The notes under the pieces were generated by a model. That model was not told the DNA's origin and searched no databases. It worked only from the letters and a program-made list of their open reading frames with translations. Below are positions 4,901 through 21,076 of a DNA stretch of 64,000 nt, piece by piece. Positions within the stretch are counted from its first letter, which is position 1; each line of letters begins with the position of its first letter. Source of the DNA: Candidatus Melainabacteria bacterium 17Bon1m (GTDB lineage: Bacteria > Cyanobacteriota > Vampirovibrionia > Obscuribacterales > Obscuribacteraceae); NCBI GenBank assembly GCA_032128875.1, contig JAVLKG010000002.1, forward strand, positions 640,001 through 704,000, read 5' to 3'. The translations under genes were made by a program, and so were the position numbers.

Positions 4901-7290
4901 TCGCCTTGCGCTTCTACGGTAATCGATCGGGTCAAGTCACCCTTCGTCACGGCGGTTGCTACTTCTGCGATAGCCCGTACCTGTCCGGTCAAGTTCGCAG
5001 CGAGCTGGTTGACGTTGTCTGTGAGATCCCTCCACGTACCGGCGGCACCAGGCACCCTTGCCTGACCACCGAGTTTTCCTTCAACACCTACTTCCCGGGC
5101 AACTGTAGTTACCTGGTCTGCGAATGTCGCCAGAGTGTCGATCATCTCGTTGATGGTGTCTGACAGAGCCGCGATTTCGCCTTTGGCTTGCAAGGCTAGT
5201 TTTCGTTTCAAGTTGCCGACGGCTACCGCGGTTACAACGCCCGCAATACCCCGCACCTGCTCTGTGAGGTTACCTGCCATGGAGTTTACGTTATCGGTTA
5301 GATCTTTCCAAATACCGCCCACCCCTTGTACGTCCGCTTGTCCTCCGAGTTTTCCTTCGGTTCCTACTTCCCGGGCTACCCGTGTAACTTCTGCCGCGAA
5401 AGACGAGAGCTGGTCAACCATGGTGTTGATTGTGTTTTTCAGCTCTAAGATTTCGCCCTTAACGTCTACAGTAATCTTCTTGGACAAGTCGCCTCGGGCT
5501 ACAGATGTCGTAACGTCTGCGATGTTACGCACCTGAGATGTGAGGTTCGACGCCATGTAATTTACGTTGTCCGTCAAATCCTTCCAGGTGCCGGACACAC
5601 CTTTTACATCCGCCTGACCACCGAGTTTTCCTTCCGTACCTACTTCTCTTGCAACCCGTGTTACTTCTGATGCGAATGATGAGAGCTGGTCAACCATGGT
5701 GTTGATTGTGTTTTTCAACTCCAAGATTTCGCCTTTAACGTCTACAGTGATCTTCTTCGAAAGGTCACCGTTCGCAACCGCAGTCGTTACGTCCGCGATG
5801 TTACGTACTTGCGACGTGAGGTTGGACGCCATGTAATTTACCGAGTCGGTCAAATCTTTCCAGGTACCGGACACACCTTTAACGTCCGCCTGACCACCGA
5901 GTTTTCCTTCCGTACCTACTTCTCTTGCAACCCGTGTTACTTCTGCCGCGAATGATGAGAGCTGGTCCACCATGGTGTTGATGGTGTCTTTCAGCTCCAA
6001 GATTTCGCCTTTTACGTCTACGGTAATCTTCTTCGAAAGGTCACCGTTCGCAACTGCGGTCGTAACGTTCGCGATGTTCCGCACCTGAGCTGTCAGGTTG
6101 CCTGCCATGTAATTTACTGAGTCAGTCAAATCCTTCCAGGTACCGGCGACCCCTTTTACTTTCGCCTGACCGCCGAGTTTTCCTTCCGTACCTACTTCTC
6201 TTGCAACCCGTGTTACTTCGGATGCGAAGGAGGACAGCTGATCCACCATTGTGTTGATTGTGATCTTCAACTCCAAGATTTCGCCTTTAACGTCTACGGT
6301 GATCTTCTTCGAAAGGTCACCGTTGGCAACTGCGGTCGTAACGTTCGCGATGTTCCGCACCTGAGCTGTCAGGTTGCCTGCCATCGAATTTACGTTATCG
6401 GTCAAATCCTTCCAGGTGCCGCTGACGCCTTTTACAATCGCCTGACCGCCTAGCTTTCCTTCAGTACCTACTTCCCGGGCAACCCGTGTTACTTCGGATG
6501 CGAAAGAGGACAGCTGGTCCACCATGGTGTTGATGGTGTTTTTGAGCTCCAAGATTTCGCCCTTTACGTCTACCGTAATTTTCTTGGAGAGGTCGCCGTT
6601 TGCAACGGCGGTTGTTACTTCTGCGATGTTCCGCACCTGTGCTGTCAGGTTACTTGCCATCGAGTTTACTGAGTCAGTCAAGTCTTTCCACGTTCCGCTT
6701 ACGCCTTTGACCTGAGCCTGACCGCCGAGTTTTCCTTCGGTACCTACTTCTCTTGCAACCCGTGTTACTTCTGATGCGAATGACGAAAGCTGGTCAACCA
6801 TTGTGTTGATCGTTTTCGCTGTTCGGAGGAACTCCCCTTTGAGTGGCGCTCCATCGATTTCGAGTGACATGGTTTGGCTGAGGTCGCCTTTTGCTACCGC
6901 CCCGATAACCCGGGCAACTTCTGTCGTGGGCCGCACCATGTCTGATACCAGAAGGTTGACTGAGTCCATGCAATCAGCCCAGCCCCCGGACACATCACCA
7001 AGTGACGCGCGGTGACCGATCTTACCTTCCTTACCAACAACGGTTGAGACTCGCTGTAGCTCGCGCACCATGCGCTCATTCAGCTCCGCCGCGTCGTTGA
7101 AAGCTACCGCTATTTCCCCGGCAATGCCGGTCTGGTCGAGCGGCAATCTAACTGAAAAGTCACCGCGAGACAGCATTCGCAGTGCCTTTAGTAATTGCTT
7201 CGCATCGATCACTTCTTTCTCAAGTGTCGCCGGCGACAATTTCTTGCTGCCGTTCGTGTCTGTGGAAGCACGAGATTTGGTTGTTGGCAT
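1987..7290 (-). CDS. Soluble poly-HAMP hybrid histidine kinase (OsaA / group III Nik1-like): HAMP array, GAF, HisKA, HATPase, 3 REC
   Basis: About 8 tandem 92-aa units ([25 protein letters not shown]), GAF (GLVGQCA), H-box [12 protein letters not shown], three receiver domains, no TM segment. Confidence 0.95.
4860..7060 (-). repeat. 276-nt tandem coding repeats (HAMP array)
   Basis: Near-identical segments recur at 276-nt spacing (e.g. the ttccagg segments near 5580, 5856, 6132, 6408); boundaries approximate. Confidence 0.85.
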
Positions 7291-7742: not shown

Positions 7743-9080
7743 CTAAAAAGTGTGATTTGAACCTGCAGTAGTTTCTGTGCCTGAGTTTCCGTTGATTGCG
7801 AGCGCCTGGCGGACTTTTCGGTTCATGCTCAGAGACTTGGCGACCATGTCCATGAATTTTGCGCCGCCCTGCGCGTTTAGGTGGGCAGTATCTTGGAAGT
7901 CGGAATCATGGAAGATCCAGTGGCTGTTCAGATCGATGAATGAAAACTCGCCACGCTGCGCGCGCGCATTCATTTCCGTCATGTACTTCTCGTACATTCC
8001 TTTCGGCATCAAAGACATGTTTTTCTCAGTGAGAGGCATGTTTGCCACCACTACTTTCACATTGTTGGCTTTTGCGTCTGACAGCAATTTATCGAAAAAT
8101 GCAATTTGATTTTGGAACAATTTTTCGTTCGGTGAAGCGAAGCGTTTTTTATACTCTCGAGTGTTATCTTTCCACGGAATTACCTGATGTGGTGGCAGTA
8201 CGAAATTGCCTTCTGTGACCGTTGCATTACCGAGAATATTGCCATCACCTTTTTCGTCGGTACCTTTCGCATCGAAGTTCGAAATCGGAATTCCTGACAG
8301 CGCACTCTTGCCTGCTTCATTAAGTGGCTTGGAGAAGTAGGTCTGCAATTCCAATCGCTTGTCGGAAAGATAATTGATGTTGTTGTAAAACGCTTCTGCT
8401 GCGGCTTGTGGGGAAACAGTCAGAAGGTGCCGAACATCATTTGTTTTGTCGAAGTGACGAAAAAATTGGTAGGTAGGTGTGGAAGTTGCTGAATCAACAC
8501 CACTGTCGATAAAGTCTCTGAGGGTCAGACCCAGTAGTATCACTTTTGGTGCCCGCTCGCCATTGAAAAGTGAGTGCTCTGTGAAATACTGGTCGGAAAT
8601 CATCGCGCCTGGCAAGGCAAAGTTGAAACACGAAATTCCTTTTGGTGCGCCAACTTCTTGCAGCTTATTTTCCAGGAAAACAGAGTGAGGATGCTTTACT
8701 GCGTCGATATTCTTGTTGAGAAAATCTGCGTCAATTAGTGATGTGGGAATCATCATCAATGACGAACCCATTACCACCACATCTGGTGCCTTAGGTTCTG
8801 CCAAATAGGATTTGGTGCGCCACCATTCCCAGGACAAACGCACGGGCAATTCGGTCGGCTTAACCTGTAGGTTAGGTTTGATGACCGAAAGTGCAATGTT
8901 GATTCCAGCGAAGGCGATCAGGGCGCAAACAATCGGACGTCCGGGGATAACGGACAGCCATGATTTCTTATCCTGCTTTTCTTCTGACATTTTCTCGCTT
9001 TCGCAAAATGGGTGAGGCTTTTCGCCGCCCGGCTCATAATTGTAAAGGTGATTGGGCTCCCCGTAGCCGACATTAACCAT
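7743..9080 (-). CDS. Membrane-anchored SGNH-hydrolase-like (DUF1574/DltD-like) protein
   Basis: N-terminal TM helix, VVMGSS block I, C-terminal D-x-x-H (FQDTAHLN); true start may be the downstream Met (MSEEKQ). Confidence 0.65.
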   Translation of the reverse strand: MVNVGYGEPNHLYNYEPGGEKPHPFCESEKMSEEKQDKKSWLSVIPGRPIVCALIAFAGINIALSVIKPNLQVKPTELPVRLSWEWWRTKSYLAEPKAPDVVVMGSSLMMIPTSLIDADFLNKNIDAVKHPHSVFLENKLQEVGAPKGISCFNFALPGAMISDQYFTEHSLFNGERAPKVILLGLTLRDFIDSGVDSATSTPTYQFFRHFDKTNDVRHLLTVSPQAAAEAFYNNINYLSDKRLELQTYFSKPLNEAGKSALSGIPISNFDAKGTDEKGDGNILGNATVTEGNFVLPPHQVIPWKDNTREYKKRFASPNEKLFQNQIAFFDKLLSDAKANNVKVVVANMPLTEKNMSLMPKGMYEKYMTEMNARAQRGEFSFIDLNSHWIFHDSDFQDTAHLNAQGGAKFMDMVAKSLSMNRKVRQALAINGNSGTETTAGSNHTF

Positions 9081-9331
9081 TAGTTAGGTGCCAAATCTGG
9101 AAAGCCTAGCTATTTGGGGCTCTCGGCTTATACTGTCGGTAATAATGAGCATTTGCTTATGTGTATGCCTCTAGTACTCAAGGGCGAAGCCAGTGATTCG
9201 GATTTGAGTCGCGAAACGCTGCGCCAGTGAGGATTTTCGTGTCCTCCACAATTCCTCCATATTCTCCATCCTCAATACATCCTCTTTAAATAGGATTTCT
9301 ACATGGCGAAGCAGCCCCCGCGTTAAGCGCC

Positions 9332-10126
9332 TTGCGCCTTTTCCGTCCTCTGAGGATTGAGTTGATGCAAATGAAATTTGAGTTCTTTGGCAGCAATGGT
9401 AAAACTCCAGGTTTTGCACGTCGTGTCTCTGCGCTTTTGGCAATTTCCGCACTTATGTTGGGTCAAAAGTGTTTTTCCGCGAACGAATCAGATACCTACC
9501 GCAACTGGCAAGCGACAGCAAAAACTACTCAGTTAGGGCAGCAGCTTCTGAGCATGATGAACGCAGTCTCGCGATCGATAAGCGTCAATCCGGCCGACAA
9601 ATATTCTCTATTTCGCCGAGCATATCTGTATGGAACGATTGGATGCACTGAATCAGCCTTGACTGATTTGACTCGAGTCATTGCAATCGATCCGAGCTTT
9701 GCTGCTGCCTACACCGAGCGAGCAAATTGCTACATGGATTTGAAGAACTACGAGCGCGCATTATTCGATCTAAATCGCGCGATTGTATTGGATCCACGAT
9801 CTGGTGATGCTCTTTATACTCGTGGTCGTTTGATGCTCCTAATGAATAAGCCGAGCCTTGCTCTCAATGATTTACGCCGCAGCCAGAGTAGTGAGTGTAA
9901 GTTTGCGCCTGCCTTACCGGGTGAACTGCCGGCTAATCACTATGACGCAACCGACTATTATCTTGGTGTTGCCTACGAGGCAATGGATAAAAAGGATGAT
10001 GCAATCAGGCATTTTCAAGCATCACTGAAAACTCCGCGACTGGGATCAGTTGGCTTCATCCATCGTTATGCGGATCAACCGCTTGATGCGAAGTACAGAG
10101 TGAGTATGTTGGAAAACGGGTATTGA
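9332..10126 (+). CDS. Tetratricopeptide repeat protein, probably exported
   Basis: TPR-like helices (AAAYTERANCY, ALYTRGRL, YYLGVAY) and a hydrophobic N-terminal segment; start uncertain. Confidence 0.8.
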   Translation: MRLFRPLRIELMQMKFEFFGSNGKTPGFARRVSALLAISALMLGQKCFSANESDTYRNWQATAKTTQLGQQLLSMMNAVSRSISVNPADKYSLFRRAYLYGTIGCTESALTDLTRVIAIDPSFAAAYTERANCYMDLKNYERALFDLNRAIVLDPRSGDALYTRGRLMLLMNKPSLALNDLRRSQSSECKFAPALPGELPANHYDATDYYLGVAYEAMDKKDDAIRHFQASLKTPRLGSVGFIHRYADQPLDAKYRVSMLENGY

Positions 10127-10512
10127 ACTGGAAACTCATAATTCTTGCACTATATATGATGCTCTTTATGAGTGTTCCAGCCGTTGCTTGCAATGAGAAT
10201 ACGAAGTTACAAACAAAATCTGCTTGCCAAAAGCAATCAGTAACCAAAAGACTTTTGGCGAGCAGAATATTTGTACCGACGCAGAAGGGACAGGTAGGAA
10301 CCAACAAAACTAGAAATGCAAAATTGGCTGCAGGCAGAAACAATACTTCGAGTCCATGGAAATTGTTGACGTCCTTGTACTCAGAAGAATCAGCCACCAA
10401 GCCAGCTGTCAGTTTTTGTAGCGCAAAAATCGAAAGAAAGTCCCTTCGATCAAAAGGTTCAAATTGCAGAAAGAATCCATGGCGTAAATTGAGCGAACTC
10501 TTTTCGTACTGA
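10123..10512 (+). CDS. Small basic exported hypothetical protein
   Basis: Signal-peptide-like N-terminus; TTG start overlaps the TPR gene stop; duplicated PW(K/R)xL(T/S)xL(Y/F)S motif. Confidence 0.5.
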   Translation: MNWKLIILALYMMLFMSVPAVACNENTKLQTKSACQKQSVTKRLLASRIFVPTQKGQVGTNKTRNAKLAAGRNNTSSPWKLLTSLYSEESATKPAVSFCSAKIERKSLRSKGSNCRKNPWRKLSELFSY

Positions 10513-10546
10513 AGAATTTTTGTGTTGTTTGAACCTTTTCGACAAT

Positions 10547-11257
10547 TTATTCATTTCCGGCTTTCGCTTCGTAACGGTAGCCGACACCGTATACGGCGTG
10601 AATCAATTCCTGCCCTGGAAGAGCTTTTGCCAACTTCTTTCTGACGTTCTTAACATGGCTGTCGATCACTCTATCGAATACCATTTGTTCTTGCTGATAG
10701 CAAAGTTCCAACAACTGATTTCTCGAAAATACGCGTCCAGGTTTTGACACAAAGAGCTTGAGCAAGCGAAACTCTGTTGGCGTCAAATCGAGGACAATGC
10801 CATTGACTGTGATTCTGCCCTGGTCATCGTCTATCTTGAAGAGTTTGGACTCTGGCTCTGCACCACCAGCCGCACGCGATCTTCTGAAGACTGCTTTCAC
10901 GCGAGCGACTACTTCTCGCGGGCTAAATGGCTTGCAAATGTAATCATCTGCGCCGAGTTCAAGACCTAGTAATCTGTCTAATTCGTCAATTCGCGCGCTG
11001 ACAATTATGATTGGGACAAGTGAAAACTTTCGAATCTCTTTGCAAATTTCCAGACCATCTCCGCCTGGCAGCATCACATCCAGAAGAATAAGTGATGGCG
11101 GATTTTTGCGAACCAATTCGACGATTTTATCACCGCGATCCTGATGCTCGACGTCGAAACCATTTTGGCGAAGGTAGTCGGTGAGGATTTCGGCTATGCG
11201 CCTCTCATCCTCGACGATCAAAATTCTTTCCTTCTTTTCCGGCGCTTCAACCACCAC
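10547..11257 (-). CDS. baeR: OmpR-family response regulator (BaeR-like)
   Basis: REC (IVEDE, LLDVMLP, GADDYICKPFSPREV) plus winged helix (LTPTEFRLL, IDSHVKNVRKK, VYGVGY). Confidence 0.85.
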   Translation of the reverse strand: MVVEAPEKKERILIVEDERRIAEILTDYLRQNGFDVEHQDRGDKIVELVRKNPPSLILLDVMLPGGDGLEICKEIRKFSLVPIIIVSARIDELDRLLGLELGADDYICKPFSPREVVARVKAVFRRSRAAGGAEPESKLFKIDDDQGRITVNGIVLDLTPTEFRLLKLFVSKPGRVFSRNQLLELCYQQEQMVFDRVIDSHVKNVRKKLAKALPGQELIHAVYGVGYRYEAKAGNE

Positions 11258-12356
11258 GAAGCCCTCTTGCAGTCGGCAGAACTACTTCTATTCTTATTCC
11301 ACCAAGGTCGGATTTAGACGCGGTAATGCTGCCTGAGTGTGCTTCAATGATCGTTTTACAAATTGCCAGACCCAATCCTGAGCCACCAAGCTCTCGGCTT
11401 CTTGATGCTTCTACTCTGAAAAAACGATCAAAGATTTTTGGAATAAGTTCTTCTGGAATGCCGGGCGGCGAATCGTCAAATCTCATCACAACCGCACTTG
11501 GTGATTTTTCCATCGATAATTTGAGTTTCCCGCCTTTGTCCGTGTACCTAAGCGAGTTTTCTAGCAGGTTGATAAAGACCTGGCGCATGCGATTGTTATC
11601 TGCATAGACAGTGCATGATTCGTTGAGGATAGCGCTTTTATCAATAGTCAGTCCTTTCTCGGCAAAGCGCTCTTCGAAGATTTCCGCGACATCTTGCAAT
11701 GTCGAGGCGACATCAATCGGAATGAATGAGTGTTTTAGATTGCCAACATCGAATCGTGCCAACCAATGCAAGTCATCGACTAGTTTGCTTAGACCCATAA
11801 TCTCTGCGTGTAACACCTGCAAAGTCTTTGGCGTTACTTCTTGCACGCCGTCTTGAAAGGCTTCCACCTGGGCGCGCAATATTGCAATCGGTGTGCGTAA
11901 TTCATGCGATGTATCTGCCATCCATTGCTTGTGGTTTTGGTCTTGATTGTTGAGAGATGCGGCCAGACTATTGAGTTCGTTTCCCAACTGACCGAATTCG
12001 TCAGAACGCAGATGTTCAATTCTTGTATTCACATCACCATCGACAAGCTTTCTCGTGCCTTCAGATATGGTGCGCACTCCCTCGGTCAAGTCTTTGGTTA
12101 GGAAATAGGTCGCAGCAAAAGTAACTGCAGAAACTCCAATACCAACTAAAAACAATTCGAAAGTTTGCTTATTGTCGAACTCTTGCCGAAGCTGTACGAG
12201 CTTCATTAAGTCATTCACCGAATGGAGCGCCTTTTCGTTGTATGCACTGATGTCCGGCCATAGTCCGAACGAAGCATAGATTACAAGTATTAGAAGAGTC
12301 GACAAAGAAACCGCAATTGCGGCAAACAGAAGTTTTTTTTCTACGTTGAGGTGCAT
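11247..12356 (-). CDS. baeS: Sensor histidine kinase (BaeS-like; 2 TM, HAMP, HisKA, HATPase)
   Basis: SHELRTP, NLLENSLRYT, RFFRVEASRSRELGGSGLGL; probable start ATG 12356, 4 nt after the upstream gene's stop. Confidence 0.85.
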   Translation of the reverse strand: MHLNVEKKLLFAAIAVSLSTLLILVIYASFGLWPDISAYNEKALHSVNDLMKLVQLRQEFDNKQTFELFLVGIGVSAVTFAATYFLTKDLTEGVRTISEGTRKLVDGDVNTRIEHLRSDEFGQLGNELNSLAASLNNQDQNHKQWMADTSHELRTPIAILRAQVEAFQDGVQEVTPKTLQVLHAEIMGLSKLVDDLHWLARFDVGNLKHSFIPIDVASTLQDVAEIFEERFAEKGLTIDKSAILNESCTVYADNNRMRQVFINLLENSLRYTDKGGKLKLSMEKSPSAVVMRFDDSPPGIPEELIPKIFDRFFRVEASRSRELGGSGLGLAICKTIIEAHSGSITASKSDLGGIRIEVVLPTARGLRGG

Positions 12357-12360
12357 GTTG

Positions 12361-14526
12361 TCAAACGTTGGCAGTCCACAGAGCATTCTTCTCTGGTATG
12401 CCATTATCTTCCCGCAAACCATAACCGGCAAGGGCTGCTTTGAGAATAGATTTTCCATTAACCTTCAGCTCCAGACCGACGACTCCCAGCGATTCGCACA
12501 TTCGAGCCTCCGTCTCAATCGTCCAATTGACTAATCCGAAGAGGAGTTTTGTTTTGTTTTCCCCCTTTTGGATCCATGTGTGTGATTCTGGATCCCAGTC
12601 GCGCCGATAACTAAAACGCAAACCTGGCTCAAAAGTTTTCAAAAGAGACCACAAGAATTTTGATGGGCCACTTGCAGGCAAAAGCCTTTTGGGCAGAAGG
12701 TCCTCCCATACGACTACACCCTCAACGAGCGGTGTAAGCCCAAGCGACATGATAAATGCGTCTAAAAGCAAATCTCCGGAACCTTGTCGATTGAAACACG
12801 CAAATAAGTCGTCAGAGCATAAGAAAGAAACGGTGGCATTGTTCTTCCCTTGCAAGTAAAACTGACCGTTCAAATCTAGGTTCACCTCTATTCTGCGCAC
12901 TTCGTCGCCTATTTCAAATTCATGTCGACAACCGACCGATAATCGCAGGGCGCGTTTTAATGCCGCATTGCAAGTAGGTTGACTAACCGATTGCAGCTCG
13001 TCAGGCTGGCAGAATAGCGAGAATGATCTCTTGTCGTTATTTGCATTTGCTGAATGAATCACGCCGGAAAGATGAAACGGAACAGTTCGACTGCCAAGCA
13101 CAAATGTTTCTTGCACGTGCATGTGTAAATGCGGCTGCGGCGAGCGGCCAGAGTTTCCCACCATAGCAAGAACCTGTCCGGGTGCCACCCAAGAGTTGAG
13201 AGCGACCTTTACGCTGTCTTTCTGCAGATGTGCGAGTAAGACATATGCTCCGGTAGTGATCTGAATGAGAATGAAGTTTCCCCAGTTATTAACAGTGTCT
13301 ACCTCACCGACAATGTTATCGGAGAGTGACGAAACGAATGCCACCACTCGCCCAAAACATGGTGACAAAACAGGCTTGCCATAAGCATAATAGTCTTCTA
13401 AATTGCGACCGTTGTCTTTGTAGCTCATCCCGTCCGCGGTTACGAAAAAGTCTAAAGCATGTTTCCACGCGGCCTGATGCGTATAGCTTCCGTCAAAGCC
13501 TTGATAAATACTCCACGAGCCGGAGAATGGAGCTTTTAATGAGATGCTGGTATCACTTAAACCTCTTGCGAGAGCTAAGCTCTTTTCTTCGATCGTCTTT
13601 TCCGGAAGCGCTGGTAAACGCAGCCAGAAATTGGTCCAGGGTCCGCCACGATAAGGCGCTAATGCAATCAGCACACCATATGTGGTGAGGACGAAAGGAG
13701 TTGCAAGAGCAGGTAACGATTCAATTGATAGTAGGCGCTCTACGCTCATTGACAATATTGCGCACAGTCCTGAAGCAACGAGAGCTACTGTTATGCTGCG
13801 TCTGCCGGGTGTTGTGTAGAGTCCGCCAATAACTGCACCAGTGAGCACCGCATTCATCTGTGCAATCAAGAAGGATATGGTGCCGGGGTAAAAACCTAAA
13901 CCAATTAAAACCAGATGTGAAATGGCGCAAGTTGCTGCTGCAATAAATGCAAGACAGGGAGAACCAATAAAAAACGCCAGGAACACAAGCAATCCACCAG
14001 TTGCGGTTCCATGAAAGTAAACGGAACCTAGTGGAGATAAGAATTTCAATGGGGTTTCTGTAAGCGGTAAACAGTCAAATACGATATTTGGCAGCGATGC
14101 TGGAATGCAAACCGTTGCCATCATAGGCAGCAACAAAAATGCGCACACTACATACGGCAGACCCAGCAATGGCAATCTAAAGTAGTGGCAGATTGTATCT
14201 CTCAAAATTGCACTTACGGCTACGATCAGCACGCAACCGACCGCAAGGAATACCATTACTTTTGCATCAACGAAGTATGTCGAACCCAGCAGCATTCCTA
14301 AAAGGATGCCATTTACGATTTCGACAGACTCATCCCATTTAGGAAGCTCGAGCAATTGTCTGATAAGAATTACCGTCGCACCGCCAAGGGCGCCCATCAA
14401 TCCAACCACTGGATTGAGCATAGTCGTTGTGAACAGCAATAAGTTCGTAGCTGGTTCTCTTAGCGCAAAAAAGGCACCATATCCAGACAGCAAACGTTTT
14501 AGAATTTCTACAACAGCTCGTATCAA
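12361..14526 (-). CDS. Urea-transporter-like membrane domain fused to an M23 peptidase domain
   Basis: Multi-TM N-half with UT-like motifs (NGILLG, LPYV, NAVLTG, TPFV); M23 motifs H..(HALDF), GNFILI, AHLQ, GNSGRSPQPHLH. Confidence 0.75.
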   Translation of the reverse strand: MIRAVVEILKRLLSGYGAFFALREPATNLLLFTTTMLNPVVGLMGALGGATVILIRQLLELPKWDESVEIVNGILLGMLLGSTYFVDAKVMVFLAVGCVLIVAVSAILRDTICHYFRLPLLGLPYVVCAFLLLPMMATVCIPASLPNIVFDCLPLTETPLKFLSPLGSVYFHGTATGGLLVFLAFFIGSPCLAFIAAATCAISHLVLIGLGFYPGTISFLIAQMNAVLTGAVIGGLYTTPGRRSITVALVASGLCAILSMSVERLLSIESLPALATPFVLTTYGVLIALAPYRGGPWTNFWLRLPALPEKTIEEKSLALARGLSDTSISLKAPFSGSWSIYQGFDGSYTHQAAWKHALDFFVTADGMSYKDNGRNLEDYYAYGKPVLSPCFGRVVAFVSSLSDNIVGEVDTVNNWGNFILIQITTGAYVLLAHLQKDSVKVALNSWVAPGQVLAMVGNSGRSPQPHLHMHVQETFVLGSRTVPFHLSGVIHSANANNDKRSFSLFCQPDELQSVSQPTCNAALKRALRLSVGCRHEFEIGDEVRRIEVNLDLNGQFYLQGKNNATVSFLCSDDLFACFNRQGSGDLLLDAFIMSLGLTPLVEGVVVWEDLLPKRLLPASGPSKFLWSLLKTFEPGLRFSYRRDWDPESHTWIQKGENKTKLLFGLVNWTIETEARMCESLGVVGLELKVNGKSILKAALAGYGLREDNGIPEKNALWTANV

Positions 14527-14529
14527 TAT

Positions 14530-15969
14530 CTAACTCCTGCGAGCGCTTGTGCCACCGTTAAGCATCCGAGCCATCGCCGATGTGTCGGGAAAAGGCATTG
14601 AAAGATGTTCTGGCAGTCTGTCTTGTTGCATCATGACTGACAAGTCTTCACACATTCTGATGACTGAGCATTCACCGTTTTCGTGAACCAATACAACGTT
14701 TGGGCGATACTCAATAAATTGCATCCATTGAGTATTGTTGTACGCACCTACGGGACTGAAGACTAAGTTGTCTCCTTGTGAAAGTGGTGGCAGCTGAACG
14801 CTGTGTCGCATTACATCGATGTTCATGCAGAGCGGGCCGTAGAGCACCGTGTCCGCCACTGTCCCTTCTGAAGGTTTTGTTGTGTGTACCTGGTGGTTGT
14901 ACCAATAAGCGGTAAACAGCAAGTTTGTTCCGGCATCGAGAATTGCTGCACGTCGCCCGTCTAACAAACGCTTCGTTCCGACGACGCTGCATATCAGCGA
15001 CTGCGCATCATCGATGATGGCGCGACCACTTTCGAATATTAGTCTCGGTAATTCGCGTCCGATTTGACGTCTGTATTGCGTTCCTTCCAGAAGTGCAGTG
15101 CAAATAGCATCGGCGTATTCGTTGATGGATGGGACTACTTGCTCCGGAGGCAGATAAACACTTTGAAGTGCATTTTGAGACGCGAAGCCTCCACCGATGT
15201 CTATGGTATCAATGCAAAAGTCTTCATTACTTTCCAGCTCGCGCATGAATTTGCACATGATACGAACTTGTTCTGCATAAGCGCGAGGTTCTAAAATAAA
15301 GGTTCCGATGTGGCTGTGCAGACCTGTAAGATTTAGGTGGCTGCTGAGCGCAATCATTTTTGCTGCCTGATGAGCTTGCCCACTTTCTATATTGAAGCCA
15401 AACCGGCTCCATGGCTCAGTGTAGCCAGTGTCGAAGTTGAGCCGCAGAACCACAGGCACAACCTTGTCCTGCTCTTTTGCAACGTTCTCGATCAACTGTA
15501 ATTCGTCAAGATGGTCGACGTGGATTTGTGCACCTTCGGCGACCGCGCGTTCGATGATGAATTTGGGCTTGTTTGGACCATTGAAAATGATTTTGTTGGC
15601 TGGAACACCTAGGGCCCGCGCCTTCTCATATTCGAATGCAGAAACAACTTCTGCCCATGACCCTTCTTGGTGCATTATGTTGCAGACGGCGCTGATGTAG
15701 TTGGTTTTGTACGACCACCCGTGGACAACAGATCCATATCGCCTCTCAAATGCTTTTTTTGTATTCCTCAAATTGGTGCGTATCTGTTTTTCTGATGTAA
15801 CAAATAAAGGTGAACCAAATCGTCTCAGTAACTCGACTACGGGAACACCGTATACTGATGATTTGCTGTTGTCGTGCAAGCGAGCCCTGCCAAACTTATT
15901 GATCTCGCCCATTCGGTGCGGCTGAATGAAAGGCGGTTCCCACACAAGTTTTTTTGTGTCGTTGTTCAT
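14530..15969 (-). CDS. PLP-dependent fold-type III decarboxylase (diaminopimelate decarboxylase-like, non-canonical)
   Basis: SYKTN (PLP lysine), IIFNGPNK, HSHIGT, IDIGGGF, ESGR, GPLCMNID, VGAY. Confidence 0.85.
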   Translation of the reverse strand: MNNDTKKLVWEPPFIQPHRMGEINKFGRARLHDNSKSSVYGVPVVELLRRFGSPLFVTSEKQIRTNLRNTKKAFERRYGSVVHGWSYKTNYISAVCNIMHQEGSWAEVVSAFEYEKARALGVPANKIIFNGPNKPKFIIERAVAEGAQIHVDHLDELQLIENVAKEQDKVVPVVLRLNFDTGYTEPWSRFGFNIESGQAHQAAKMIALSSHLNLTGLHSHIGTFILEPRAYAEQVRIMCKFMRELESNEDFCIDTIDIGGGFASQNALQSVYLPPEQVVPSINEYADAICTALLEGTQYRRQIGRELPRLIFESGRAIIDDAQSLICSVVGTKRLLDGRRAAILDAGTNLLFTAYWYNHQVHTTKPSEGTVADTVLYGPLCMNIDVMRHSVQLPPLSQGDNLVFSPVGAYNNTQWMQFIEYRPNVVLVHENGECSVIRMCEDLSVMMQQDRLPEHLSMPFPDTSAMARMLNGGTSARRS

Positions 15970-16004
15970 GTTTGAAAAATTGCTCCAATATTTTTTTTGA
16001 AATT

Positions 16005-17120
16005 TTAGGCAGACCGAATTATTTGGTCTTGCACCATTTGCGGTGCTAGTCTGCCTTCAGTTAATACTGTCTCAAATTCAGGCAGCGTTACAATGAGTTC
16101 TTGTGCGTGCCGGATGAAGAATGTCCCTGAGGTTGGCTCTGACAATTCCAGCTGGGTAGCTCCAGAAAGCAGCTTCAATACTGCAACCGGTAGATTTCTT
16201 CCAACGGCGTGACTTAAATAAATCCAGGAAGGAAATCTTGGGTTTATTTCTATAAGGTAGATTTTGCCGTCATAGCCTTTGATTACTTCGACCTCTAGCG
16301 GCCCTCGCCAACTCAGTGCACCAACAATCTTTTCTGCGACCTTTGTCAGTCCATCGTCAACGATACTTACACCTGCCCAAGCCTTTCCTTTCTCTGTCAA
16401 CGCCTTCTTCCGCATGGTTACAGCGCCAAGCATGTTTCCTTTTCCGTCGCCTACTGCCGCTAAATTGAGTTCATCGCCGATTACAAGTTTTTGCACCAAA
16501 ACCGGATAACCCCAAGTTGATACCAGTTTTGCAAAAATCGTTTTTGCTTCGAATGCTGAATGCACGACATAGGCATCATAGAAAAGCCCTTTCACGATGA
16601 GTGGATATTTCCATCCTTCTTTTTCGCAACTGTCGAAAAATGAAGGATTACTCAAAGCCTTACTTTCTGGGGCGTGTACATCTATTGATTCACAGAAGGT
16701 TCTCAGATGATTCTTCGCACGCAGATTGAATTGATCTCGAGTCGGAATCAACATAGAAATTCCCATCAATTGCAATTCGCTTTTTAGGCGCCCAAAATTC
16801 TGTAGTTCAGAATCCAGGCACGGAATAATTGCATCGAGTCCTTCCGCTCGATGAATTTGCGCGAGGCGATACAGCAGCGCTTCTTCTCCCTCTGACGGGT
16901 ACGGAATCAGGTAACTGTTGTTACATAGATGCCGGGCATAAAGCCCGGCATCCAGTGCGTCGTATCCCAACCCAATAATCGAACCTTTAAATTGAGGGTG
17001 TTCTTGAATGCATCGTGCAACCGCGCAGCCCGGACCCGGGTTTTCCGCCCGAGCATTGATGCCTGTCACTGCCACTTTACAGTTTTGCCAACTCTTGCCC
17101 TTCTGGCGCGTTGCCTTCAT
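16005..17120 (-). CDS. ATP-grasp ligase (CarB/PylC-like)
   Basis: PLIVKG, VLVQK, GPLEVEV, LIEINPRF; ATGA overlap with the upstream PqqD-like gene. Confidence 0.85.
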   Translation of the reverse strand: MKATRQKGKSWQNCKVAVTGINARAENPGPGCAVARCIQEHPQFKGSIIGLGYDALDAGLYARHLCNNSYLIPYPSEGEEALLYRLAQIHRAEGLDAIIPCLDSELQNFGRLKSELQLMGISMLIPTRDQFNLRAKNHLRTFCESIDVHAPESKALSNPSFFDSCEKEGWKYPLIVKGLFYDAYVVHSAFEAKTIFAKLVSTWGYPVLVQKLVIGDELNLAAVGDGKGNMLGAVTMRKKALTEKGKAWAGVSIVDDGLTKVAEKIVGALSWRGPLEVEVIKGYDGKIYLIEINPRFPSWIYLSHAVGRNLPVAVLKLLSGATQLELSEPTSGTFFIRHAQELIVTLPEFETVLTEGRLAPQMVQDQIIRSA

Positions 17121-17389
17121 AGATATCTCCCAAGTTGCAGTATGAATGCTTCAACGCTGCTGGATGCAATTTCTGCAGGAATACCGCAGCGGTCTGCCAG
17201 TGAATTAGAGGCAACGTCCAGCGTACTGCCGCGCTTGAGCAAATCGAGCACTATCAAGCCAGTCGGGTTAACCGAGAAACTTTGTCCTGTCTGCGGGTCA
17301 AAAATAAAACCTGTTTCGCTAACAGCCAGTTGCGAGAGTCGCTCTCTCGACGGCACTTTCCCGCCTGTGCGACTCAGCAGTTCTTCCAT
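17117..17389 (-). CDS. Stand-alone PqqD-family / RRE-like small protein
   Basis: LAVSETGFIFDPQTGQSFSVNPTGLIVLDLL...VEAFILQL fits the PqqD-like three-strand/three-helix pattern; GGAGG upstream of ATG 17389. Confidence 0.8.
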   Translation of the reverse strand: MEELLSRTGGKVPSRERLSQLAVSETGFIFDPQTGQSFSVNPTGLIVLDLLKRGSTLDVASNSLADRCGIPAEIASSSVEAFILQLGRYL

Positions 17390-17513
17390 CACCAGTTTTA
17401 CCTCCAGTGAAAGTGAAGCGCCTTCCACACTCGCATCTTAGTAGGCGAGCATGGAGAGAGGATGGAAAATATGGAGGGATTGTGGAGGCGGTGGTTTGAT
17501 GTCGGAAACTGCG

Positions 17514-18305
17514 TTAACCCGCTGGTACTTCGGCGGTGTTTGCAGGTTTGTCTTTCAGTGCCAGAAACAGTGCGACTAGCCCTGCTCCCGGCACTATGAA
17601 GCCGGCTGCATTAATAACCAGGATTATCCATTTTTTGGAAGTATTTCCCTTAAGAGCCAACAGAGTCGGTAGGAAGAAAGAGCCGATATACATAAGGAAG
17701 TAGAACATTGCGAACGCATAGCCAAGCGGCTCGCTGCCTGTGAGGATGATGATGCCCGGCGCAGCGACTGCAGCTATGCCGCCAATTACTCCGACCGCCA
17801 GCATGAGCTTAACCAGTCCCCACTTCTTGACGCAGGCAGCCAAAATTGCGCCGGTTATAAGCATCAGTGCCGAGCATACGCCTAAAAGCTCGGCTACCCA
17901 GCCAAGAGCTTCTTTCTTTTTGGAAGGGTCACTCAGGTCTTTAATTAGTGATTGAGTGGCTTTGTCAGCCTCTGAGGCATTCTCTGCTTCTGATGAGTCC
18001 TCTGTTCCAGAAGACTTCTCGGTCCCAGAAACTTTTTCTGTTCCAGAAGTCTTTGCTGGTTCAGAAGCGTTCTCCGGTTTTGCCGCATTTTCGGTGGTAG
18101 GGCTGGTAGCTTCTTTTGACTTTTCTGAGGCAGTCGGAGGTTCAGCGCAAACCGGCGACGGCAGAAAAACAAAGCCGGCTAAGCATAAGCAAACAAACAT
18201 CCGTAAAAACAGTGCCATATATTTAGCTCCAAGCTCGCCCACAATCGAGAATATAGCACTGCTGGGCTCTATTTTTTGAACCGGTTTGACGACAATTGTG
18301 TCCAC
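17514..18305 (-). CDS. Membrane protein with acidic repeat linker and C-terminal superinfection-immunity (Imm_superinfect)-like segment
   Basis: Signal peptide, ExxS(G/E)(T/A) repeats, several TMs, C-terminal FFLPTLLAL...KWIILVIN...ALFLAL; likely start is the internal MALFLR. Confidence 0.6.
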   Translation of the reverse strand: MDTIVVKPVQKIEPSSAIFSIVGELGAKYMALFLRMFVCLCLAGFVFLPSPVCAEPPTASEKSKEATSPTTENAAKPENASEPAKTSGTEKVSGTEKSSGTEDSSEAENASEADKATQSLIKDLSDPSKKKEALGWVAELLGVCSALMLITGAILAACVKKWGLVKLMLAVGVIGGIAAVAAPGIIILTGSEPLGYAFAMFYFLMYIGSFFLPTLLALKGNTSKKWIILVINAAGFIVPGAGLVALFLALKDKPANTAEVPAG

Positions 18306-18609
18306 GTGAGACTTTGGAATTTGACTGATTCAATTGAACTTTTTCAGTGGATTCGTCGTCTCTATAAAAGGACAACAAAATAGACGCGTTGGTCTGCTTG
18401 CAGGTCCGTAGTGGGGAGAAACTATCATCCTGCTGGTGGACTAGCGCGTCTAAATTTTAAAGGGTCGTTCGTCAGTTGGAACGTCGCGACAGGGGTTTTC
18501 CCTATGGAATTTAGGAACCTCCGTGGCTACAGTGGACCTGCGCACTTTTGCGTTTTTGTTCAACTTAGTAGTTTTTCAAACTGCTAAAACCCTTACCAGG
18601 AAAAATTAA

Positions 18610-19257
18610 ATGTATTGGAGAATCGGCATTGCCTTGATGCTGAGCGCGCTTGCGTTTGGAATTTGGATTGCCTCACTGCAGCCCGGCACTGGCAGAGATG
18701 AGTTCTTTTGGCAATGTATGGCAAGCAACGACCATATCTTTCGGAGATTTTGGCCGCAATTTCTTTGGCTTACAATCCCGAGCTTGCTGTTGGCGGTGTG
18801 GCCATTTGCTATCTCTGTACCCGGCGTAAAAAGCAGTTTCAATAAAGCGTCTCAACTTAAGGCGTCCTTTTGGTTGTTTCTCGCCTTTGCATCTATTCCC
18901 CGCTTTTTCCCATGGTTAGCAATTGTCTTGCCTCAGCTAATTGCACAAGTATTTGCAGATCACTTCCCTCAGATCTACCACCACGGCACAACGTTTTGCG
19001 CGGTATGTGATCATACTCTCGCCGAGGATTTGAACATGATACTGCTGCCTTGTATGCAGGCAGTTTTGTGGGCTGCAGGTGTTGCGACAGGCGTGCTTCA
19101 ACTTTTGAAATCATCGAAGCCTGTTTCGAGGCTTAATTCAGCGAAAAGCTATTTGCCTGGCCTCAGCTATGCATGCCTTTTGATGGCTGTGGTCGTCGCC
19201 GATATAACCCAACGATATGTATGGGCTGAAGAGTGCATACACCAGGGATTTCACTGA
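18610..19257 (+). CDS. Hypothetical multi-pass membrane protein
   Basis: 215-aa ORF with 4-5 hydrophobic segments; AGGA upstream of the ATG. Confidence 0.65.
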   Translation: MYWRIGIALMLSALAFGIWIASLQPGTGRDEFFWQCMASNDHIFRRFWPQFLWLTIPSLLLAVWPFAISVPGVKSSFNKASQLKASFWLFLAFASIPRFFPWLAIVLPQLIAQVFADHFPQIYHHGTTFCAVCDHTLAEDLNMILLPCMQAVLWAAGVATGVLQLLKSSKPVSRLNSAKSYLPGLSYACLLMAVVVADITQRYVWAEECIHQGFH

Positions 19258-19426: not shown

Positions 19427-21076
19427 TCAGGTTGTCCGAGTAGTAGGAGTGCAAATCTCTGGCATTGGACCAAAGAATTGAGCCTTTGTTTTCTTGATTT
19501 TTAGTGCGCGCTGCGCTGCAATGCGGCCGCCTCTGATTGCTGACTCGGCTGCAGGTAGTCCGTGATAGCTGGAGTGCGCAAATGAGTAGCTGTTGGTTTG
19601 CGCGGCCAGGATCTTTTTCATTCTTTTGAAATAGTCCGGACCCGTCACGGCCATTGCATGCCCCCAGCGTGTGAGCTGTACTGTTTCAAGAGAGGCATCG
19701 AACTCTTTTCCGAGGATGCCTGCCAACTGTTTTCGCAATTGGAGTGAGAACCTATCGCGGTCTCCTTCGAGCAATAAGCCTCGCCCTTCGGAGCCGGCAA
19801 GATAAGGTTGGTAAACGGTCAATACCTGACCCATCTCTTTTCTGTAGTGACCGTTCAGGTCATATGCAGTGTTGGCGATAGTTATATCTGGGAATGAGTA
19901 TTTAGACGGCAGCCAGTTGTCGAAACTGCTATTGAACACCTTCTTGTTGAGAATGAAATTGCCGACCAGATAACTTCCATATCGGACCGCATACATTTGC
20001 GCTTTTTCTGGAACCTTGAGATTGACCATGCGAGTAGCAATCATTGGGGAAACAGCGATGATCGCGTGTTTGCAATTAACGCGGTGAAGATTTCCTGCCT
20101 TATCTTGGTAAACAACAGAAGCTCCATCATCCTTCAACGTTACATTCCAGACAAATGCATCTGTCACCATTCTTTGAGGCGTTTTTTGTTTAATGCTATT
20201 TGCAATCGCGCGTGTCAAGGCCGGGTTTCCGCCTTCGAGCAAGTAGCTTGGTATTACCAAGTCTTCAAGCACCGACAGACCTGCAAGAGCAGAGAGGTTG
20301 TTTGCGCCTCCGCAGGCCGAGGATTTCATAAATCCCTCGATCAAATCCATGAAAGGGGCACTGTATCCAGTGAGCATTGTTGAGAGCAAAACTTTGTCCA
20401 GTTTTTCTAATTCTGGTGTCAGCTCGGAAACGTACATAGTGGCATTTCCCATTTTTGACCAAACTGATTTCATTTCTGATCTCAGTCTTTTGAAATCTTT
20501 GTAGATTGCGTTGGTTCCACCATCGATGCCCTTGAGGAAACGCGCACCGTCCCACCACGCATTCTTTTCCGTGCCGATCTTAACCGGCTTCAGTTTCATA
20601 TCAGCGATGATTTGACCGACGTCCCCATCGATGTCAGTTAGGTATTGCGAGCCGTATGAATACCAGAGTCCGCGAGAATTAGAGCCGCGCGCGTTGCCAC
20701 CAGTTTCTTGATACTGTTCCAACAATAGATAGTCATGGTCTTTGAGATGATGCGCCGCAGTCAGCGCTGCCATGCCACCACCGATGATGACGAAGTCAAT
20801 GTTTCGCTCGCTTGCTTTAGGAAACCTCGGAATTTCAGAGTTTCTCAAACGATGGCCGAAAGTGAAGTCGTCGCCGGTCCAAGGAAGCAACTTAACGTCT
20901 GACTTTAGTTTGACTTCGCCCGCCAGCGCCTGCGAGCCTTGCAACATCGAAATTCCGCCCGATGCGCCCAGTCCACATAGCAAAACTGCGAGTTGTTGGA
21001 GAAACTCGCGCCTTGTCGTTTGTTCGTCGAAAGTCAAAACCTGCCCCTTGGCTAGCCGTCTGCTCGCGCCGCCCAC
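19427..21076 (-). CDS. Tat-exported FAD-dependent oxidoreductase (amine oxidase-like)
   Basis: TRREFL Tat motif, IIGGGMAA dinucleotide-binding motif, LLEQ..TGGNA, RWGHAM; start uncertain. Confidence 0.8.
   Translation of the reverse strand: MGGASRRLAKGQVLTFDEQTTRREFLQQLAVLLCGLGASGGISMLQGSQALAGEVKLKSDVKLLPWTGDDFTFGHRLRNSEIPRFPKASERNIDFVIIGGGMAALTAAHHLKDHDYLLLEQYQETGGNARGSNSRGLWYSYGSQYLTDIDGDVGQIIADMKLKPVKIGTEKNAWWDGARFLKGIDGGTNAIYKDFKRLRSEMKSVWSKMGNATMYVSELTPELEKLDKVLLSTMLTGYSAPFMDLIEGFMKSSACGGANNLSALAGLSVLEDLVIPSYLLEGGNPALTRAIANSIKQKTPQRMVTDAFVWNVTLKDDGASVVYQDKAGNLHRVNCKHAIIAVSPMIATRMVNLKVPEKAQMYAVRYGSYLVGNFILNKKVFNSSFDNWLPSKYSFPDITIANTAYDLNGHYRKEMGQVLTVYQPYLAGSEGRGLLLEGDRDRFSLQLRKQLAGILGKEFDASLETVQLTRWGHAMAVTGPDYFKRMKKILAAQTNSYSFAHSSYHGLPAAESAIRGGRIAAQRALKIKKTKAQFFGPMPEICTPTTRTT

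Follow-up and report, generated by a model that had tools for sequence, protein, structure and literature searches.

Candidatus Melainabacteria bacterium 17Bon1m (Obscuribacterales, Obscuribacteraceae; assembly GCA_032128875.1; 7.55 Mb, 35 contigs, 93% complete) possesses a compact gene cassette encoding a small PqqD-like protein, an ATP-grasp ligase, a pyridoxal phosphate (PLP)-dependent decarboxylase and a membrane protein in which a urea transporter-like (UT) domain is fused to an M23 peptidase. These four genes are followed by genes for a two-component system (Table 1). The cassette was analyzed within a stretch of 64,000 nucleotides of contig JAVLKG010000002.1 (positions 640,001 to 704,000), referred to below as the window. 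Six consecutive co-directional open reading frames (ORFs) span positions 10547-17428 of the window on the minus strand, and their coordinates agree with the first-pass annotation, made from the sequence alone, of six same-strand genes with overlaps or gaps of 35 nucleotides (nt) or less. The start of the ATP-grasp gene overlaps the stop codon of the PqqD gene by 4 nt, gaps of 35 and 3 nt separate ATP-grasp from decarboxylase and decarboxylase from fusion gene, and the kinase and regulator genes overlap by 11 nt. The longest kinase ORF runs 98 nt into the fusion gene; its likely start is Met35 (12356), which leaves a gap of 4 nt. For the PqqD gene, the start proposed earlier (17389) corresponds to Met14 of the GTG-started 103-aa ORF and is likely the correct one.

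Table 1. Genes of the cassette and the adjoining envelope gene in the window.
Feature	Position	Strand	Details
PqqD-like small protein (RiPP-recognition-element fold)	17117-17428	-	103 aa from GTG; PF05402
ATP-grasp ligase	16005-17120	-	371 aa; PF15632
Fold-III (alanine-racemase-fold) PLP decarboxylase, conjugate-acting clade	14530-15969	-	479 aa; Orn_Arg_deC_N
UT + M23 fusion membrane protein	12361-14526	-	721 aa; Pfam UT, Peptidase_M23
Sensor histidine kinase, HAMP-HisKA-HATPase, short loop between two transmembrane helices	11247-12458	-	Pfam
OmpR/PhoB-class response regulator	10547-11257	-	Pfam Response_reg, Trans_reg_C
Secreted TPR protein, convergent with the regulator gene, probable accessory envelope component	9332-10126	+	TPR_1, TPR_2

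The domains that the first-pass annotation had assigned to the cassette proteins were all recovered by Pfam above the respective cut-offs: PqqD with 34.0 bits (cut-off 23.4), ATPgrasp_Ter with 32.3 bits (29.1), Orn_Arg_deC_N with 114.9, UT with 87.4 and Peptidase_M23 with 44.4 bits, as well as HAMP, HisKA and HATPase_c in the kinase and Response_reg and Trans_reg_C in the regulator. None of the six proteins reached an NCBIfam equivalog cut-off, so none qualifies as the orthologue of any named enzyme. Pfam found no acyl or peptidyl carrier protein domain in any of the six, and no IucA/IucC-type synthetase domain (as in NRPS-independent siderophore (NIS) synthesis) in the 18 proteins scanned across 227-28877.

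To define the cassette, 92 loci were fetched via the ATP-grasp gene alone: 12 from species-representative genomes, found with the ligase of the window, and 80 from metagenomes, the best of at least 599 stretches matched (at least 567 of them encoding a relative) in a search with an alignment of 25 ATP-grasp homologues (A1). All counts are thus conditional on an ATP-grasp protein of this subfamily (44-96% identity), and each gene was counted only in loci with enough flanking DNA. The order PqqD, ATP-grasp, decarboxylase, UT/M23 is constant across the 92 loci. A PqqD-family ORF was detected in 84 of them with a profile of the family (A3), the remaining eight having less than 160 nt upstream of the ATP-grasp gene; by tblastn, PqqD was found in 73 of 79 loci. 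The decarboxylase follows the ligase in 65 of 66 loci (a glyS-like ORF takes its place in L052), and the UT/M23 fusion is present in all 51 loci in which it could be counted. This arrangement is far beyond chance. The joint conservation of the four genes, for which a neighbourhood analysis of the ATP-grasp gene had been proposed, extends from Obscuribacterales to Gammaproteobacteria and Desulfobacteraceae; by the names given in the sources, carriers also include Magnetococcales, Magnetospirillum and Zetaproteobacteria, among them the cultured Ghiorsea bivora. In four distant, low-GC loci (L075, L077, L081, L083), a gene for a secreted protein of 537-620 aa with DxDxDGxxE-like repeats sits between PqqD and ATP-grasp, and the fusion protein matches only to approximately residue 500.

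Homologues of the single proteins are numerous (2218 for ATP-grasp at E<=1e-10, 453 for the fusion protein at E<=1e-5). ESM Atlas clusters, most frequent in Pseudomonadota, Myxococcota and Campylobacterota, returned only the family of the queried protein itself. Within the class of the host, the fusion protein occurs in 20 of 201 sampled genomes, all of them in the host's family (the genome of the window and 19 of 47 others), compared with none of 153 genomes from ten other families. The cassette is therefore a patchy, accessory trait.

The closest relative of solved structure for the decarboxylase is the N-citrylornithine decarboxylase FslC/FigC (7kh2, 174.2 bits), followed by diaminopimelate (DAP) decarboxylase (1twi, 144.5 bits), while BtrK (2j66, 7ru7) is distant at ~64 bits. 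Neither the FslC model (NF041039, 205.8 bits, cut-off 500) nor the lysA model (TIGR01048, 219 bits, cut-off 297.9) claims it. The genome encodes a genuine lysA on another contig (G000:C10:1188-2447, 429.8 bits with the same model), so that the cassette enzyme is not its only LysA, the case in which the first-pass annotation would have given up a special pathway. The PLP lysine (K88), GGG loop, stacking His and catalytic Cys can all be recognized in the alignments. The motifs GP.CM and WSRFGF are common to the cassette enzyme and FslC, whereas 1twi has CES and NKFG at these positions; the Arg of the 'RPamY' stretch of 1twi is missing as well. These residues of the DAP decarboxylase type hold the distal end of free DAP. 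In PMC7857480, FigC is grouped with SbnH, AcsE, MccE and BtrK in a clade outside polyamine synthesis which acts on larger, conjugated substrates. The comparison with butirosin BtrJ/BtrK made in the first-pass annotation therefore holds in its logic, as ligation followed by decarboxylation of the conjugate fits what that source says of the nearest relatives, but is weakened in its particulars, BtrK being a remote relative (64 bits compared with 174 for FslC) and a carrier of the acyl carrier protein type being absent. Ahead of the LysA-like core, the enzyme has an N-terminal tail of ~35 residues with the motif kk.W.kP.i.Ph..G..NKFG, which recurs across 64 distinct N-termini, those of the most distant loci among them.

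The best NCBIfam match of the ATP-grasp ligase is of the PRK12767 type (80 bits, cut-off 316), and the sources name its homologues only 'ATP-grasp domain-containing protein' or 'carbamoyl-phosphate synthase large subunit'. In a profile search, the best solved relative was 2pn1 (57.5 bits), a structural-genomics entry without assigned function, followed by the ATP-grasp module of carbamoyl-phosphate synthetase and, marginally, by VanA, Ddl and PylC. E291, N293 and R295 are invariant in A1, the E-x-N metal site thus being kept along with many other invariant positions.

The fusion protein consists of three parts, a UT-like domain of ten helices (residues ~1-290), the M23 domain (~330-485) and a family-specific beta-barrel (~500-715). 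In the AlphaFold model of the full-length protein (mean predicted local confidence, pLDDT, 88.6), residues 1 to ~320 were matched by Foldseek to bacterial and animal urea transporters (8xdg, 8xd9, 3k3f, 4ezc and others; E 3e-13 to 1e-10, TMt 0.72-0.82) and the middle part to LytM/M23 domains; the UT fold of the N-terminal domain is thereby confirmed at the level of the model. The pore motifs are altered, LPxLG/SLP(F/Y) and LPxLA/SxPF in the family versus LPxxTxPF in UT-A and the bacterial transporter dvUT. Both pore threonines, which presumably line the central urea site, are replaced in all 30 sequences compared (G in 16, S in 13 and N in one at position 122; A in 26 and S in four at position 275), which points to another permeant or to a pore that does not conduct urea. 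The protein also remains far below the cut-off of the urea transporter model yut (TIGR03441, 54.8 bits, cut-off 274.6). Conversely, the M23 residues H350, D359, H433, H466 and H468 are present in all 30 sequences, and the peptidase is therefore probably active, as judged from its residues. Its first motif is spaced Hx8D, the canonical spacing being HxxxD.

Neither the model nor the hydrophobicity profile places a transmembrane helix between the UT fold and the M23 domain. Because the termini of UT-B are intracellular according to PMC12998343, the M23 and C-terminal domains are predicted to be cytoplasmic and would thus share a compartment with the three soluble proteins; a simple count of hydrophobicity and positive-inside charges left the topology unsettled. 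The cleavage of peptidoglycan for which the M23 domain had first been considered is accordingly disfavoured: the peptidase comes after a UT fold, which in known UTs ends inside the cell, and mature peptidoglycan is therefore an unlikely substrate.

For the C-terminal domain (model pLDDT 86.6), the best Foldseek match was LolA (E 4e-3), and VIA-align gave Z scores of 9.7 and 9.4 for the sheets of vitellogenin and lipovitellin and 7.5 for LolA. As scores in this range can reflect a common arrangement, the domain is called here only an open beta-barrel of lipid-binder type. Its profile matched 271 proteins (E<=0.001) among 1.84 billion representatives. Among the 150 matches listed, 74 have at least 640 aa, 14 have 350-639 aa and 62 are shorter; the long proteins inspected all carry the domain at residues ~470-770, and many short ones appear to start within it, as expected of truncated genes. 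Judged from these profile matches, the domain appears to be essentially private to the fusion family. One member of the family, P0262 (1112 aa), has ~400 residues beyond the barrel, perhaps a fused downstream envelope gene.

The PqqD-like protein, encoded by a single-copy gene in this genome, has a conserved core at residues ~29-103 (LA.SE.GF.FDP..G.SF..N.TG), in which all of its invariant residues lie (G40, F43, D44, G48, N54, F95). Its N-terminal ~25 residues and its C-terminus vary among homologues (GRYL, LGIP, GQLK, AFHG and others), with no invariant terminal residue. As both ends vary and conservation is confined to the core, a LysW- or carrier-like role is argued against. The suggestion of the first-pass annotation that the small protein may itself be the scaffold finds no support in these observations, nor in the fusions of the domain to TetR-type regulators in some cassettes. 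Such TetR-PqqD fusions were found in four database proteins (P0241-P0244) and three loci. Two of them (L049:1497-2297 and L056:8156-8974) occupy the canonical position just upstream of ATP-grasp and one (L053:3958-4755) is an extra copy; these cassettes are of the gammaproteobacterial type, and the PqqD-like domain stands behind a full TetR-type regulator. The lasso peptide PqqD model NF033530 scored 34.3 bits (cut-off 70). Prediction of a complex of the ATP-grasp (A1) and PqqD-like (A3) proteins scored 0.00 in both runs, which is evidence neither way. An apparent PqqD-ATP-grasp fusion (P0245, 454 aa) was rejected as a Rosetta-stone protein: its middle reads as an out-of-frame translation, and it resembles L047, where both genes are separate.

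The kinase resembles BaeS and WalK, yet with 330.5 bits for the BaeS model (BaeS_SmeS, cut-off 500) and 291.2 bits for BaeR (cut-off 380), both proteins stay below the equivalog cut-offs, and of the BaeSR-like pair of the first-pass annotation only the likeness is left. By these scores, kinase and regulator represent an OmpR/PhoB-class pair of their own. Their link to the cassette is real but not universal. Downstream of the fusion gene, 2.2 kb or more of sequence is available in 43 loci. In 13 of these (the type found in the window), a homologous response regulator is encoded directly downstream, and barrel and TPR genes are lacking. A further 25 encode downstream a signal-peptide-bearing barrel-like protein of ~300 aa and/or a secreted TPR protein of ~206 aa, and five have neither by these queries. 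The ~300-aa protein has an aromatic C-terminus and no Pfam match, and is barrel-like by eye only. Kinase homologues follow the fusion gene in loci of the Obscuribacterales type, and among the 38 loci in which 2.5 kb or more precede PqqD, six carry a regulator on that side.

In the window, the cassette thus takes its Obscuribacteraceae form: the two-component genes follow it directly, and a TPR gene in convergent orientation replaces the barrel-TPR pair. Homologues of the window's TPR protein (49-98% identity) adjoin the cassette in nine loci, convergent downstream in L001, L003, L004, L006 and L018 and, in L007, L014, L015 and L016, on the strand of PqqD and directly upstream of it; for this reason the protein is counted as part of the system. 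Its homology to the proteobacterial 206-aa TPR protein was considered and dropped, as BLASTP detected no similarity, which leaves an analogy only. The TPR gene is flanked by genes for a DUF1574 protein (7743-9080, minus strand) and a signal-peptide protein of 129 aa with no family (10123-10512, plus strand), the latter conserved in L001 and L006 at 41-66% identity. Beyond them lie, on the minus strand, genes for a hybrid histidine kinase of 1767 aa with eight HAMP repeats, GAF and three receiver domains (1987-7290) and, next to it, a second hybrid kinase/receiver protein (227-1969).

On the other side, directly upstream of PqqD, a gene at 17514-18305 (minus strand) encodes a 263-aa protein with a signal peptide, a Ser/Thr/Glu-rich low-complexity stretch, four C-terminal transmembrane helices and no Pfam match; only close relatives share it (39-84% identity). 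A flavin-containing amine oxidoreductase gene (19427-21076, minus strand) is located two genes upstream of the cassette on the same strand and is syntenic in L001-L003, L005 and L006. As it was not seen next to more distant cassettes, it is probably outside the core, though an amine oxidase so close to a putative amine pathway merits attention. A scan for promoters and terminators found 10 and 9 sites, compared with 10.2 and 9.5 expected from shuffled sequences. Three runs labelled RNA-Seq, which cover the entire stretch, share their sample with a probable source DNA run and were discarded as evidence of transcription: they yield contigs of 18-49 kb with even depth over both coding directions. 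Over positions 9000-19000 of the window, these runs (X2-X4) behave like DNA libraries or DNA-rich RNA libraries.

How could these proteins act together? In our preferred reading, to which we give a probability of about 40%, the cassette would be a biosynthesis-and-release module for a small, amide-linked, decarboxylated amine, which is released by the M23 peptidase at an altered channel. The cytoplasmic ATP-grasp ligase would couple a carboxylate with a diamino acid (of the ornithine, lysine or DAP type) through the side-chain amine of the latter, or couple a similar pair, and the FslC-like decarboxylase would strip the alpha-carboxylate from the conjugate to give an N-acyl diamine. The PqqD-like protein may be an adaptor, bringing the enzymes together or gripping a peptide-like segment, for which the conserved N-terminal tail of the decarboxylase is the best candidate. 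Where the UT-like pore opens to the cytoplasm, the M23 domain, predicted to lie on that side, would then cleave an amide bond in the intermediate. Lacking both constriction threonines, the pore may pass something other than urea. The secreted TPR protein presumably acts beyond the inner membrane, joined in most proteobacterial versions by the outer-membrane barrel-like protein, and the OmpR-class pair may control or sense the module in the version of the window. What the data establish are the set of genes and how it is conserved, the complete catalytic residues, the family to which the decarboxylase belongs and the changed pore motif, whereas substrates, sequence of reactions, topology, adaptor function and direction of transport are inferred.

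Several points weigh against this proposal. Its substrate, product and interactions are postulates, and for the ligase no characterized enzyme offers a closer comparison than 2pn1, itself without assigned function. A cytoplasmic M23 peptidase is unusual, its predicted location being deduced from homology and charge, and the UT-like domain might conduct nothing. The proposal does not explain why a bond should be made and then cut again, although protecting-group and prodrug pathways offer a parallel. PqqD domains are known as binders of leader peptides, which by analogy would suit a peptide substrate better than a small molecule, and the TetR-PqqD fusions hint at a regulatory or sensing role for which the proposal has no need. 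Finally, no homologue of the outer-membrane barrel was found in the genome of the window (93% complete) with a single query from L056. A more elaborate version, which we consider speculative and rather unlikely, would make the PqqD-fold protein, instead of a chaperone for leader peptides, a protein-protein adaptor (a TetR-fused sensor in some lineages) that clamps the decarboxylase tail and assembles a ligase-decarboxylase complex at a channel with its own cytoplasmic M23 amidase. The whole would form a novel type of envelope-spanning machine that makes, unmasks and exports an amine or amide. If so, this would be the first UT fold recruited for the export of a secondary metabolite or envelope compound.

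The universal presence of a PqqD/RiPP recognition element (RRE) fold (RiPP, ribosomally synthesized, post-translationally modified peptide) raises another possibility, namely a scaffold-peptide or RiPP-like pathway similar to those of the PEARL (peptide aminoacyl-tRNA ligase) type. Here, the RRE would present a ribosomal peptide encoded elsewhere or the tail of a cassette protein, the ATP-grasp enzyme would add an amino acid, the decarboxylase would trim the added residue, and the M23 peptidase would free the product for export. The fusion of a peptidase to an exporter-like protein and the leader-like, conserved N-terminal tail of the decarboxylase fit this idea, and PMC13622209 describes scaffold-peptide pathways in which small molecules are made with components of RiPP systems. 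No precursor, however, was found in the cluster. In line with the first-pass annotation, for which no precursor peptide was evident, the loci contain no conserved ORF of at least 70 aa besides the known genes. Among small ORFs (12-75 aa) on the same strand within 600 nt upstream of PqqD, none is common to more than four closely related loci, and those shared by these few relatives overlap regulator genes out of frame. The intergenic gaps of the window's cassette, where a further precursor could be sought within the cluster itself, do not exceed 35 nt. With an RRE but no precursor, the cassette is not a demonstrable RiPP cluster, and we regard a scaffold-peptide pathway as unlikely, though less so than the other alternatives.

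Every catalytic family of the cassette also has cell-wall relatives, and the proteins could alternatively edit a cell-wall precursor. The target of the ligase, which would work in the manner of D-Asp or D-Ala ligases, and of the LysA-like decarboxylase would then be the free D-centre of meso-DAP, borne by a UDP-MurNAc peptide or a lipid-linked precursor. Stem peptides would be trimmed by the M23 domain, and an envelope-stress-type two-component pair would be in control. DAP decarboxylase is indeed the second-best relative of the decarboxylase, Ddl and VanA weakly match the ATP-grasp profile (E 1.8e-4 to 7e-3), the relatives of the M23 domain are peptidoglycan peptidases, the kinase resembles BaeS and WalK, and lipid-binding folds of the LolA-like kind are weak matches to the C-terminal barrel (Z 7.5-9.7). 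Yet Ddl and VanA are only marginally similar, the fold match lies within the range that the tool itself calls common, bound DAP as the substrate is a conjecture, and the UT-like channel and the PqqD domain would be left without a role; the patchy distribution is compatible with this scheme but does not support it. We consider it improbable. Least probable of all is uptake or salvage, in which the UT-like pore would import a small amide or peptide-like compound, to be cleaved by M23 on arrival and converted by ligase and decarboxylase: known UTs are bidirectional channels, the peptidase would sit at the cytoplasmic face where an imported substrate emerges, and the barrel-TPR pair of other lineages could equally serve uptake, but an ATP-consuming ligase is atypical of catabolism, the conjugate-type decarboxylase clade described in PMC7857480 is biosynthetic, and neither a binding protein nor an energy-coupled transporter is present. 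The probability left over from our preferred reading, that of a module making and releasing an amine, and from these three alternatives belongs to something else.

Literature searches for the gene combination found no functional description of the cassette, in agreement with the first-pass annotation; PMC12998343 lists the UT+M23 architecture without a function. Solving the function would define a product class not flagged by genome-mining tools and would show how an RRE fold serves outside RiPP pathways, what an M23 peptidase does in the cytoplasm and which role other than in urea transport a UT fold can take. In the meantime, the pipeline label 'urea transporter' probably misleads inferences about nitrogen metabolism in genomes that carry the cassette.

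Among known systems, several share single features with the cassette. With the urea transporters (dvUT, UT-A, UT-B), the fusion protein has in common the ten-helix fold and the paired LPxx.xPF pore motifs, but both pore threonines are replaced and M23 and beta-barrel domains are added. A peptidase physically joined to a membrane step is also known from PCAT transporters, in which a C39 peptidase is carried on an ABC pump, and from the periplasmic S12 peptidase ClbP, whereas here an M23 peptidase is joined to a channel and no ATPase is involved; as in those systems, such a link could couple cleavage to passage. The amino-group carrier of the LysW type has a conserved acidic C-terminal attachment residue, in contrast to the PqqD-like protein. 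Discrete RREs (PqqD, lasso B1), PEARL systems and the fosfazinomycin pathway resemble the cassette in that a stand-alone PqqD fold is translationally coupled to a modifying enzyme and a peptidase is present in the cluster. The cassette differs from them in that no precursor gene was found in the cluster, that the RRE is sometimes fused to TetR and that its partners, an ATP-grasp ligase and a PLP decarboxylase, fall outside the known RRE-dependent classes (radical SAM enzymes, YcaO, lasso cyclase). Further studies of small molecules assembled on scaffold peptides with RiPP components have reportedly appeared.

The closest parallels are found in two biosynthetic pathways. In rhizoferrin synthesis in Francisella (FslA/FigA and FslC/FigC), as well as in the pathways of SbnH and AcsE, an amide-forming ligase is followed by a fold-III decarboxylase acting on the conjugate; FslC shares the GP.CM and WSRFGF motifs with the cassette enzyme and is its best solved relative. 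There, however, the ligase is an NIS synthetase (IucA/IucC) instead of an ATP-grasp protein, the rhizoferrin pathway has neither a PqqD protein nor a channel-peptidase fusion, and nothing in the cassette points to iron. In butirosin synthesis (BtrI/BtrJ/BtrK with BtrG/BtrH), a tethered amino acid is processed and the amide-bonded group is later removed. The combination of an ATP-grasp ligase with a fold-III decarboxylase acting on a tethered amino acid would be the same, whereas the carrier protein of that pathway has no counterpart among the cassette proteins, which include instead a PqqD fold without a conserved attachment site. The module fails the defining features of both pathways, with no NIS synthetase, no acyl carrier protein and scores under the cut-offs, and yet FslA/FslC and BtrJ/BtrK are the systems that it would most resemble in the way it works.

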